NCBI GenBank assembly: GCA_039809905.1
Contig: JBDHVY010000001.1
Location: forward strand, 240,001 to 272,000
Source of the DNA: Candidatus Babelota bacterium
GTDB taxonomy: Bacteria > Babelota > Babeliae > Babelales > Vermiphilaceae
Direction: 5' to 3'
DNA length: 32,000 bases
Below, one piece after another: positions 11,781-14,144 of this stretch; position 1 is the first letter of the stretch, and each line of letters starts with the position of its first letter. The translations under genes were made by a program, and so were the position numbers. A model generated the notes under the pieces. That model had not been told where the DNA came from and made no database searches. It saw only the letters and a program-made list of their open reading frames with translations.

Positions 11781-14144
11781 ATGAATTTATACAAAGTGTT
11801 ATCTATTAGAATATATATAGCTATTCTTTGTTACATGATTAACATAGGTGCAACTCAACACGTATCCCATCTTCTCGTAAAAGCTCCACTAAAAACACGT
11901 CTTCAGAAAAGAGAACAGATCGCAGATAAATACATAAATAATAAAGAAATTGTTTTTATAAAAACAAAAGATAAAAAAATTTTTCCTCTTGACCGCTGGC
12001 AGCTTGAATATATGCCATATTTATTCACAATGGCATCTCAACAAAAAAAGAATAGTTTTGGCAACCCTCTTGATATCTCTCAAATTACTATTAATGATTC
12101 TCAACAACCCAACGGCATTAAAATTATCGATGGCATTAACAGTGAGGAATTGGAATTATTATCAACCACCTGGAATGAAATGAAAGGCTTCGGCGTTCTA
12201 TTTTTTCTTGATGATCTAAAAAAAGATAATCCTCATTCTTTATCAGTACTTCAAGATGCCTCCAAAAAAATTGGCAACAATCTTTTATATGCAACAACTA
12301 CGAGCTACTTAATGCCACCAGAAATGCAAAGCAAAATAGCTGAACCATTAATTACTCCTATCATCAAACTTTTAAAACAACAAGGTTATGTAAGCACGAC
12401 ACGCCCAATCATTTTTAATGGACCTCAAAGAAACCCATTTTTTGATGCAGTAGTAAGTACTGATGGAAAAAAATGGGTTGACAAGTCTCTCAATGAAGGA
12501 AAATTATTGAATTGGGAAAATCAACAATTGAGCCTCTATTATATTCCTACTAATCAAGCTGAAATTACTCCGGGCAAGGTAAATAATCCCGCATCTCAAA
12601 TACTTGGGCTACAAACTGAACTGATTAAAAAACGATTTATATTCAGCCCTGATAGCAAAATGCTTGCTGCAATACCAAAATACACTAAGGGCAATTTATT
12701 ATGTTGGGATATTTATGATAAAATCAAAAAATACACTATCAACTATGAAGGTTTTGTCGACGAAATAGCATTCAGTCCTGATTGTCGAACAATTGTTTTT
12801 ATAGGAAGCAATGAACCTCCTTCAGCAGAAAATAAACGTGCTGATAAATTGTATATCTGTCATCTTACGCAAGAAAATCCAAAACCCCAACTCATTGAAA
12901 CTATAACAAAACCAATCCAATCGATTATCTTTAGTCCTGATAATAAAAACTTTGCATGCATCTCAGAACGAGAGGTTAATATCTATTATTCTAATCCTAA
13001 GGGTTATTTTACCGCCAAAGCAATTCAATGGGATGATGAGAAACCACCTATTACATCAATAACTTTTGACGCAACCGGGAACAAATTTATCTGTCATGTA
13101 AAAAATCCTGAAATTGGACAACTGACTACGCTATTGTATATTTATAAGCTATATGATAACAATTTTATTTTATACAGAACAACAGAAGTAGACGGGAAAT
13201 TTTTTGGCGATATTCGTTTTGATTTAAAAGAAAACTCTTGCCTTATTACTCAATCAAGTACAACCACTGGTCTTGATAAAGGAATTTATTATTGGGATAA
13301 CATTGATCAAAAAAATTCTAAACCTCGCTTAGTTTATAATGGTGATTCTCCCACACAAGCAGCACTAAGCCCTAATAGCCAATTATGTGTTTTTGCCAGC
13401 AATCCTGATATAACATGTGAGAAATTATATTATTTTTACACAAGTAATTGCATAGTTCGCGAAATTGAGAAGAGTCTCTTCTTCAATACTCGCTCGCTAA
13501 CCTTTAGTAAAGATAGTAAACATTGCTCTGTTATTAGACAAAAAAACGATATACCTGATAATAAAACAACAATTAGCAAAAAGAATCTTAAATTTGGTGA
13601 TCAAGAACTCAGAAATTGCAATCTTGGCACAGCTACTTTGCTTCATAATGTTTTGGAAGAATTATTAAAACACCATCACTCACAAATCGTAAAAAAAACC
13701 TTAGCTTATGAATTACTTTACCGGTTACCACTACAACTGCGAGAATTCATAATAAAAATCTTAAAGCTAGATGTTGTTGATTATCTCGATCCTCGCAGAC
13801 GCTTAACAGAATCCAAAGAAAACGAACAAGAATTTCCCCAATCAGAATTACAAGAACCTCCACATGATATAGCAAAAATACTAACAAAAAAAGCTAGTGA
13901 ATCTCTTCTACAAGATTTGGCTCAATACCTGGAACAGATCAAGCAACAGCCCACCATAAAACACGAGATGAAGATGCCATCTTCCAATCCGCCGGAAACC
14001 CTTGCCGGAAAAATCATTACTTCATTATCTACTATGGGAAACTATATTTATTCTTATTTACCATCCAGATTGCAAAGACTATTCAAAAAAGAAAATCCTA
14101 TAGCGGAAAAAGAACCTCTTAATCCACTACAGGAAAATCAATAA
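11781..14144 (+). CDS. Secreted or membrane-anchored WD40-like beta-propeller protein with possible BTB/Skp1-like N-terminal domain
   Basis: RBS AAAGGAGC upstream. N-terminal hydrophobic segment IRIYIAILCYMINIGA. Repeated blades: FSPDSKMLAA...GNLLCWDI, IAFSPDCRTIVF, IIFSPDNKNFAC, ITFDATGNKFIC, ALSPNSQLCVF, LTFSKDSKHCSV. Confidence 0.75.
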   Translation: MNLYKVLSIRIYIAILCYMINIGATQHVSHLLVKAPLKTRLQKREQIADKYINNKEIVFIKTKDKKIFPLDRWQLEYMPYLFTMASQQKKNSFGNPLDISQITINDSQQPNGIKIIDGINSEELELLSTTWNEMKGFGVLFFLDDLKKDNPHSLSVLQDASKKIGNNLLYATTTSYLMPPEMQSKIAEPLITPIIKLLKQQGYVSTTRPIIFNGPQRNPFFDAVVSTDGKKWVDKSLNEGKLLNWENQQLSLYYIPTNQAEITPGKVNNPASQILGLQTELIKKRFIFSPDSKMLAAIPKYTKGNLLCWDIYDKIKKYTINYEGFVDEIAFSPDCRTIVFIGSNEPPSAENKRADKLYICHLTQENPKPQLIETITKPIQSIIFSPDNKNFACISEREVNIYYSNPKGYFTAKAIQWDDEKPPITSITFDATGNKFICHVKNPEIGQLTTLLYIYKLYDNNFILYRTTEVDGKFFGDIRFDLKENSCLITQSSTTTGLDKGIYYWDNIDQKNSKPRLVYNGDSPTQAALSPNSQLCVFASNPDITCEKLYYFYTSNCIVREIEKSLFFNTRSLTFSKDSKHCSVIRQKNDIPDNKTTISKKNLKFGDQELRNCNLGTATLLHNVLEELLKHHHSQIVKKTLAYELLYRLPLQLREFIIKILKLDVVDYLDPRRRLTESKENEQEFPQSELQEPPHDIAKILTKKASESLLQDLAQYLEQIKQQPTIKHEMKMPSSNPPETLAGKIITSLSTMGNYIYSYLPSRLQRLFKKENPIAEKEPLNPLQENQ

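Follow-up and report, generated by a model that had tools for sequence, protein, structure and literature searches.

A fast-evolving gene of a Dependentiae bacterium and its family of leader-bearing WD40 proteins with a predicted Skp1/POZ-like N-terminal domain

The propeller gene and its family

The stretch of DNA analysed here (the window) comprises 32,000 nucleotides of contig JBDHVY010000001.1 (assembly GCA_039809905.1, positions 240,001 to 272,000 of the forward strand) and comes from a Dependentiae/Babeliales bacterium with a genome of ~1.2 Mb, the source contig being 1.23 Mb long. The surrounding genes are housekeeping genes (yidC, recR, murC, ffh, rpsP, a trmD fusion, rplS, hflX and uvrD), and the flanking housekeeping proteins, including Ffh, are 75-84% identical to those of Dependentiae/TM6/Babeliales metagenome-assembled genomes. 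Among them lies a gene for a 787-amino-acid (aa) protein, hereafter the propeller protein, which belongs to a small, unnamed family that joins a signal-peptide-like leader, an N-terminal domain (N-domain) of probably Skp1/POZ-like fold, a WD40 propeller and a helical module downstream of it (C-module). The protein may be an exported mimic of a host ubiquitin-ligase component. The gene and its upstream region have the following features, with positions counted from the start of the window.

11596-11780, no strand: divergent spacer between the propeller gene and the ankyrin gene, 185 bp, 79.5% A+T, from the sequence
11762-11768, plus strand: ribosome-binding site AAAGGAG, 12 nt 5' of the ATG, from the sequence and kept in the orthologue on sister contig L015
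11781-14144, plus strand: open reading frame of the propeller protein, 787 aa, ATG start, read from the sequence
11781-11855, plus strand: hydrophobic leader, residues 1-25, signal-peptide-like by hydropathy and followed by a conserved 'ATQHVxHLP' motif
11928-12410, plus strand: N-domain, residues 50-210, with a Skp1/POZ-like fold predicted by an AlphaFold2 (AF2) model
12423-13571, plus strand: divergent beta-propeller of the WD40 type, residues ~215-597, 7-8 candidate blades, from blade motifs and phmmer
13572-13799, plus strand: helical C-module, residues 598-673, whose last helix is 'Y..(L/F)P..L(R/K/Q)', from family conservation
13800-14144, plus strand: variable tail, residues 674-787, and then the stop codon, from the family alignment

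A preliminary description of this locus, made by eye from the sequence, had placed the reading frame at exactly these coordinates and had proposed an N-terminal hydrophobic leader or anchor, a very AT-rich divergent spacer of exactly this length and a WD40-like propeller with at least six blades, and all of these proposals are borne out. Residues 1-25 are the sole strongly hydrophobic segment of the protein (Kyte-Doolittle peak 1.84), and with a hydrophobic core at residues ~11-23 and a candidate cleavage site between IGA and TQ the segment resembles a signal peptide, as do the leaders found in all complete family members. It is also possible that the leader of the propeller protein is a membrane anchor rather than a Sec signal peptide.

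The propeller contains five strict [FLIVA]S[PK][DN] blade motifs, at residues 288, 331, 384, 529 and 575, and three degenerate motifs recognised by eye at ~223, 427 and 478, with an overall spacing between the 'xSPDxK'-type motifs of 43-65 residues; the count of 7-8 blades is thus one of motifs, partly by eye. Pfam gave only sub-threshold beta-propeller matches to the full protein (THOC3, E=1.3e-5; PD40, E=9e-4, 19.6 bits against a cut-off of 20.9; WD40, E=0.011, 16.8 bits against a cut-off of 27), and NCBIfam gave none. An exhaustive HMMER search with phmmer against 1.84 billion representative sequences returned 1196 matches at E<=1e-3. Of the 150 that were listed, nearly all cover residues ~285-440, and those sampled were canonical WD40 proteins (PF00400 E=1e-51 to 1e-110). 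Since the matches are so numerous, fall mainly on that stretch where listed and are canonical WD40 proteins where sampled, the likeness is beyond chance, and we regard residues ~215-597 as a real WD40-type propeller. The distant family members have canonical GH...WD blades, as in P0146 (PF00400 E=1.3e-51).

A word-indexed homologue search with the protein returned the protein itself and one weak WD40 match, the same search with the N-domain alignment returned nothing, so that the family evidently escapes the word index; a scan of genome contigs for the protein was likewise negative. Among the phmmer matches were five full-length or N-domain relatives, namely P0003 with its cluster mate P0153 (L015; 74-75% identical to the propeller protein), P0004 (774 aa, E=1.7e-78), P0005 (772 aa, E=2.5e-50), P0106 (556 aa) and P0146 (698 aa). 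A metagenome scan with the N-domain alignment and contig look-ups added further members on contigs L016 (two), L017 and L023 (three), bringing the family to at least 10 members. Every complete member consists of a signal-peptide-like leader, an alpha/beta N-domain of ~150 aa with the conserved pattern 'VFIKTxD...WxIxxM...NPxDxSxI...ELxLL...', a WD40 propeller of 7-8 blades and a helical C-module of ~60 aa. The C-module is conserved in all complete members and invariably accompanies the N-domain, and within 340 kb of related DNA hidden Markov models (HMMs) of the two match only family proteins and always co-occur. The family is invisible to current profile libraries; the present work defines it by its combination of N-domain, WD40 propeller and C-module, and the alignments can seed a profile.

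Compared with its 74%-identical orthologue on L015, the propeller gene has a ratio of nonsynonymous to synonymous substitution rates (dN/dS) of 0.40 overall, against 0.15 for rplS, so that it is constrained by purifying selection yet fast-evolving, as effectors typically are. By part, the ratio is 0.31 for the N-domain, 0.37 for the propeller, 0.31 for the C-module and 0.52 for the variable tail. In other uncultured bacteria the family forms tandem arrays, with two copies at L016 1449-4642 and three at L023 3-4560, a birth-and-death pattern of the kind typical of effector families.

A further WD40 protein, of 779 aa, is encoded two genes downstream of family member P0004 (L020 7110-9449, plus strand). 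It lacks the Skp1-like domain and has only the leader and a 'ATELVRKLPLQV' motif in common with the family, the latter corresponding to 'ATQHVSHL' in the window protein. The leader motif common to the family and the L020 protein may be an export or sorting motif. A C-module had been read by eye in this paralogue as well and was rejected when the C-module HMM did not confirm it.

The N-domain and the C-module

Residues ~55-136 had been assigned by eye to a Skp1/BTB-POZ domain, and the likeness to Skp1 stands only at the level of the fold, with moderate confidence. An AF2 model of residues 50-210, built on a family alignment of six sequences, has a predicted local distance difference test score (pLDDT) of 70.2 and a predicted template modelling score (pTM) of 0.71; the whole protein modelled as a single sequence has a pLDDT of 35.8. 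In the N-domain model, strands b1 (57-61) and b2 (67-71) are followed by helix a1 (72-88), a low-confidence loop (89-109), strand b3 (113-116) and helices at 121-136, 139-149, 151-163, 167-176 and 180-200, and this order of elements, b-b-a-b-a-a-a-a-a, is that of Skp1/POZ domains. The third strand falls in an insertion that only some family members carry.

The model was compared by Foldseek with 350,542 PDB chains and with the predicted viral structures of BFVD. The best 50 PDB matches are all Skp1 (human, yeast, Arabidopsis and Dictyostelium) or Elongin C, the numerous Skp1 chains being non-independent observations, and the best of them is 1fs1_B (E=0.029, Foldseek probability 1.00, template modelling (TM) score 0.45 by query and 0.59 by target). 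No BTB chain occurs among these 50. In BFVD, giant-virus SKP1 homologues lead, with Solumvirus at E=0.02 followed by Pithovirus, Fadolivirus, Cedratvirus and Pandoravirus, and after them come a few BTB/POZ viral models at E>=0.18. Thus, Foldseek places Skp1 first in both collections, at best E-values of 0.029 and 0.02.

The sequences themselves were also compared. When each family member was scanned separately, Skp1_POZ (PF03931) was the only Pfam family matched by more than one member, the two being the L016 pair, near-identical tandem paralogues that are distant from the propeller protein. Their matches (E=0.019, 15.6 bits, and E=0.027, 15.1 bits) are below the cut-off of 21.9 bits and align residues 9-58 with positions 4-50 of the 62 in the profile. 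In addition, the family N-domain was aligned by hhalign with reference alignments of Skp1 and BTB, which had been validated against the PDB (top matches Skp1 and BCL6/KEAP1/SPOP/PLZF, respectively). The alignment with Skp1 covers 46-48 columns at P=0.039 with nine family sequences and P=0.019 with ten, and its register is the one that had been drawn by eye, with IVFIKTKDKKIFPLD opposite IKLQSSDGEIFEVD and NPLDISQ opposite DPVPLPN. The BTB alternative fared worse: there is no Pfam match to BTB, and the validated BTB alignment gives P=0.14. Two further by-eye correspondences, 'LxxAAxKI' with LILAANYL and 'PxEMQ' with TPEEIR, found no support in the hhalign comparison of the C-terminal halves (P=0.8).

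Several results weigh against a Skp1-like domain. No Foldseek match in the PDB reaches E<=0.001, and the best 50 span E=0.029-0.33 with TM scores of 0.30-0.59 and large root-mean-square deviations (7.5-16 Å), for a model built on six sequences. Pfam gave no match, to Skp1, BTB or any other family, with isolated N-domain fragments, nor any to Skp1 or BTB with the whole window protein (to Skp1_POZ none even at E<=10), and the family N-domain profile found no Skp1 or BTB match among PDB sequences. An empirical null agrees with the P reported by hhalign for Skp1 but exposes the weakness of the match: of 300 column-shuffled Skp1 profiles, five equalled or exceeded the score of the real one, and so did the profile when reversed. 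Elongin C aligns out of register (P=0.18), and the C-terminal half has no sequence similarity to the F-box-binding C-terminal half of Skp1 in the hhalign comparison already cited. With marginal P values, ties in the null and negative results for BTB, Elongin C, the C-terminal half and the PDB sequences, the Skp1 likeness as seen from the sequence is only a marginal hint. Judged mainly from the model, the N-domain probably is Skp1/POZ-like in fold; that it also shares common ancestry with Skp1 is a possibility we hold more tentatively.

The C-module has no relative in Pfam or PDB sequence searches. It was considered as an F-box (PF00646/PF12937), and this identification was rejected: when the module was aligned with the F-box by hhalign, only the LP helix aligned, to F-box H1, over 15 columns (P=0.062). 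Moreover, P0106 stops ~10 residues past the LP motif, too soon for F-box helices H2 and H3 to fit in. The one clue to what the module might be is its constant pairing with the N-domain. In propeller folds the two ends of the propeller adjoin in space, and the C-module and the N-domain may therefore touch.

The variable tail contains a second 'Y..LP..LQ' motif ('YIYSYLPSRLQRLFKKE') at residues ~753-772 (14037-14096, plus strand), reminiscent of the helix that closes the C-module. P0004 and P0005 have kept it, and the C-module HMM has a weak second match there in the propeller protein.

Possible functions of the propeller protein and its ankyrin neighbour

What might a leader-bearing protein of this architecture do in an obligate intracellular bacterium? 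The best reading, which we put forward tentatively, is that it is a Sec-exported effector that mimics a cullin-RING-ligase adaptor or substrate receptor. The fast-evolving protein, bearing a putative Sec signal, would be exported from the obligate intracellular Dependentiae into the protist host and would there imitate, in a single polypeptide, the substrate receptor of a cullin-RING ligase. Through its Skp1-like domain it would attach to a host cullin, or capture or titrate host F-box proteins, while the WD40 propeller would hold a host target, the ubiquitination of which would be redirected or blocked. Export to the host, like any tie to the ubiquitin system, is something we only infer, and a cullin- or F-box-linked function taken by itself is doubtful. 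A Sec leader alone reaches only the periplasm of a diderm cell, a further point against such a role.

The reading as an exported Skp1-like POZ/WD40 effector is set against the background of what has been reported for Dependentiae, Chlamydiae and mimiviruses. In Chromulinavorax destructans, a cultivated member of Dependentiae, 44% of coding sequences and 78% of ankyrin proteins have signal peptides, and the proteins bearing them are thought to be secreted effectors that manipulate the host (PMC6561590). WD40 proteins are known in TM6 genomes, as are F-box, leucine-rich repeat (LRR) and ankyrin proteins (PMC4776705), amoeba-associated Chlamydiae have large BTB-LRR and F-box families that act as effectors (PMC4209131), and mimiviruses encode BTB/POZ proteins with WD repeats (PMC5743647).

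Among known systems, Skp1 and Elongin C (PF03931 with PF01466) are the closest in predicted fold: the N-domain is predicted to run b-b-a-b and then into a helical bundle, and the stretch from helix 1 to strand 3 forms a variable loop at the position of the disordered acidic loop of Skp1. The N-domain differs from them in that it has no significant sequence similarity, lacks detectable Skp1 C-terminal motifs, shares its polypeptide with a WD40 propeller and follows a bacterial signal-peptide-like leader. The BTB/POZ-WD proteins of mimiviruses, likewise from parasites of amoebae (PMC5743647, PMC6484134), offer the same order of N-terminal POZ-fold domain, helical linker and C-terminal propeller. 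Unlike them, the propeller protein has neither a BTB HMM match nor BTB among its best 50 PDB matches, carries a conserved C-module after the propeller and is of bacterial origin with a Sec-type leader. In PEX1 of Protochlamydia (BTB with LRR) and in the F-box and U-box effectors of chlamydiae and Legionella, as is predicted for our family, a eukaryote-like adaptor domain is fused to repeats, and those families too belong to amoeba-associated bacteria and are lineage-specific and rapidly duplicating (PMC4209131). They are, however, recognisable by HMMs, have LRR or ankyrin repeats and carry type III or IV signals, none of which applies to the family described here, with its Skp1 likeness at the fold level only, WD40 repeats and Sec-type leaders. 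The FBXW receptors (Fbw7, beta-TrCP and Cdc4) resemble the propeller protein in having a WD40 propeller, presumed here to bind the target, near a small helical LPxxL module; in the propeller protein this module comes after the propeller, not before it, and lacks F-box H2 and H3, its likeness to the F-box being limited to the 15 columns mentioned above.

Copies of the substrate-receptor end of ubiquitin ligases (F-box, U-box and BTB) are already known from bacteria and giant viruses that dwell in amoebae. If the exported-effector reading is right, a copy of the Skp1 adaptor itself, joined with a propeller, would enter the ubiquitin machinery by another route. It would also offer a first way into the function of the many signal-peptide-bearing proteins of Dependentiae that lack annotation, in a phylum of protist parasites that is widespread and almost unstudied. 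Mimicry of eukaryote-like ligase adaptors by intracellular microbes is already known, and the unnamed Skp1-like WD40 family would be a new form of it. Searches of the literature turned up no bacterial effector with a Skp1 fold, which is absence of evidence only.

An alternative that we take seriously, without thinking it probable, is that the protein is a generic secreted WD40 scaffold or effector, in which the N-domain serves oligomerisation or some other host contact and has no link to cullin-RING ligases. POZ folds such as BTB and T1 domains also serve purely for oligomerisation, every similarity to Skp1 is sub-significant, and the conserved C-module has no recognisable relative. Moreover, WD40 proteins are common in bacteria with no ubiquitin link, and the top WD40 matches are multi-repeat proteins of 1000-2000 aa. 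The exported-mimic reading is favoured over a generic scaffold by the fact that Skp1, a hypothesis stated beforehand, comes out on top of the PDB, BFVD and Pfam comparisons ahead of other alpha/beta folds, and by the order of POZ domain and propeller, which parallels known ligase adaptors.

A more specific form of the ubiquitin-ligase reading is improbable: the protein could be a bacterial Skp1 mimic that works as a single-chain Skp1-cullin-F-box (SCF) receptor, in which the Skp1-like domain and propeller share one polypeptide and the C-module folds back on the Skp1-like helices like an F-box. Were it so, the single chain could plug into host Cul1-Rbx1, or soak up F-box proteins, with no need of host Skp1, and it would be the first bacterial Skp1 mimic.

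The preliminary description had paired the propeller protein with the product of the divergent gene, taken for an ankyrin-RING protein, in a two-gene ubiquitination module. The neighbour is the following.

9634-11595, minus strand: ankyrin protein, 653 aa, bearing a leader that resembles a signal peptide and a C-terminal tail rich in Cys/His (Ank_2 E=3.5e-36)

The ankyrin part of that assignment holds, and for the RING part no Pfam HMM or PDB sequence match was found. The tail (the ~45 C-terminal residues, 9634-9780) has nine Cys/His residues, C609, C612, H615, C624, H628, C634, C637, C645 and C648, that are invariant in six ankyrin orthologues of 42-63% identity, all of which end in 'CPxC'. 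The spacing is C-x2-C-x11-C-x3-H-x5-C-x2-C-x7-C-x2-C, in which the H-to-C interval of 5 is outside the canonical 2-3 of RING domains. Given that the nine residues are invariant, the tail is probably a zinc-binding, RING-like finger.

That the two genes form a co-regulated mimic of a ubiquitin ligase, one supplying the adaptor and the other the RING, would fit their divergent arrangement across 185 bp, the signal-peptide-like leaders on both proteins, the RING-like spacing of the invariant residues, and the persistence of the pair on L015, where the spacer is retained, its ankyrin-proximal half best of all, together with the opening 18 codons of an ankyrin orthologue that is encoded on the opposite strand. 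The spacer is 88.6% identical to that of L015 overall, 95.8% in the ankyrin-proximal part (11596-11690) and 81% in the remainder (11691-11780), compared with 83.5% for the coding sequence, and the excess in the ankyrin-proximal half over both suggests that 11596-11690 is a constrained promoter or 5' leader of the ankyrin gene. A scan of the divergent spacer for promoter-like elements scored no higher than shuffled expectation.

The distribution of the two genes makes such a module very unlikely. In L025 and L026, the closest relatives (Ffh 83-84% identical to that of the window), the ankyrin orthologue (P0155/P0156, 62% identical) stands alone at the site, and in the assembly of L025 the family member P0004 is on another contig, between L21/MutS and an AAA ATPase. 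The members P0005 and P0106 and those on L016 and L017 lack a divergent ankyrin partner, all that P0146 has is a short same-strand ankyrin gene two genes upstream, and other relatives (L001, L004 and L009) have neither gene at the site. By the synteny condition that the preliminary description had itself set, the proposed module thus fails, the pair being unlinked outside the window and its sister lineage L015, and, with no RING match in the neighbour and ankyrin genes very abundant in Dependentiae (PMC6561590), chance adjacency is likely. The ankyrin neighbour appears to be a chance juxtaposition in this lineage, with no conserved or obligate partnership, and the apparent pairing of the propeller protein with a RING protein an accident of gene order.

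Least credible of all is that the propeller is a TolB/PD40 or BamB-type housekeeping propeller of the periplasm or outer membrane, an identity whose periplasmic TolB/PD40 form the preliminary description had named as fatal to its own proposal: the Sec-type leader, FSPD-type blade motifs resembling PD40 repeats and the sub-threshold PD40 match all suit it, but the identity was rejected because the protein is absent from the syntenic site in related loci and evolves fast relative to rplS, has neither a TolB N-domain nor an NCBIfam match, has canonical WD40 relatives, and belongs to a family found in tandem multicopy arrays, unlike a conserved single-copy envelope gene.

History of the site and other features of the window

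Gene order among relatives is ffh-rpsP-trmD-rplS-o153-[o115-o90]-murC-merR-yidC-recR, and the propeller gene lies at the site between o153 and o115. This site is empty in L001, L004 and L009, holds the ankyrin orthologue only in L025 and L026, and holds o240, the propeller gene and the ankyrin gene in the window and in sister contig L015; in 16 related Babeliales loci the syntenic site lacks the propeller gene. From these three states we conclude that the ankyrin gene is the older resident of the site and that the propeller gene and o240 were inserted later between o153 and the ankyrin gene, as a lineage-specific insertion. No repeats or marks of mobile elements were found flanking the inserted segment.

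The gene inserted together with the propeller gene is the following.

14158-14946, minus strand: o240, convergent neighbour of the propeller gene, co-inserted with it, with an intact L015 orthologue

In the window, an in-frame stop at ~14887-14889 ('...AAVCSM*AELSYMD') cuts the signal-peptide start of o240 (ATG at ~14946) from the remainder, and o240 is for this reason probably a decaying gene. The L015 orthologue is intact, with 278 aa and a signal peptide, and the dN/dS of o240 is 0.67.

Between o115 and the stop codon of the ankyrin gene, at 9592-9614, there is a strong hairpin, GC-rich and with a T-run behind it (GGGCGAGC...GCTCGCCC). Relatives have kept this terminator hairpin, in their case between o115 and o153, which are convergent, and it marks where the old junction of the variable site was.

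Other features of the window concern its housekeeping neighbourhood. The trmD fusion (15950-17254, minus strand) joins TrmD to a second SPOUT-type domain (Methyltrn_RNA_4, PF09936) in a protein of 434 aa, and most Babeliales loci examined match the fusion from end to end. Two tandem paralogues at 20579-22294 and 22459-23766 (plus strand), 38-40% identical to each other, encode tetratricopeptide repeats and weakly match glycosyltransferase family 9 in their C-terminal part, and the pair is conserved in closer relatives. The gap between murC and merR is a second variable spot of the same neighbourhood: the two genes are adjacent in the window, and L001 (16797-18948), L004 and L009 hold ~1.5-2 kb of extra DNA there.

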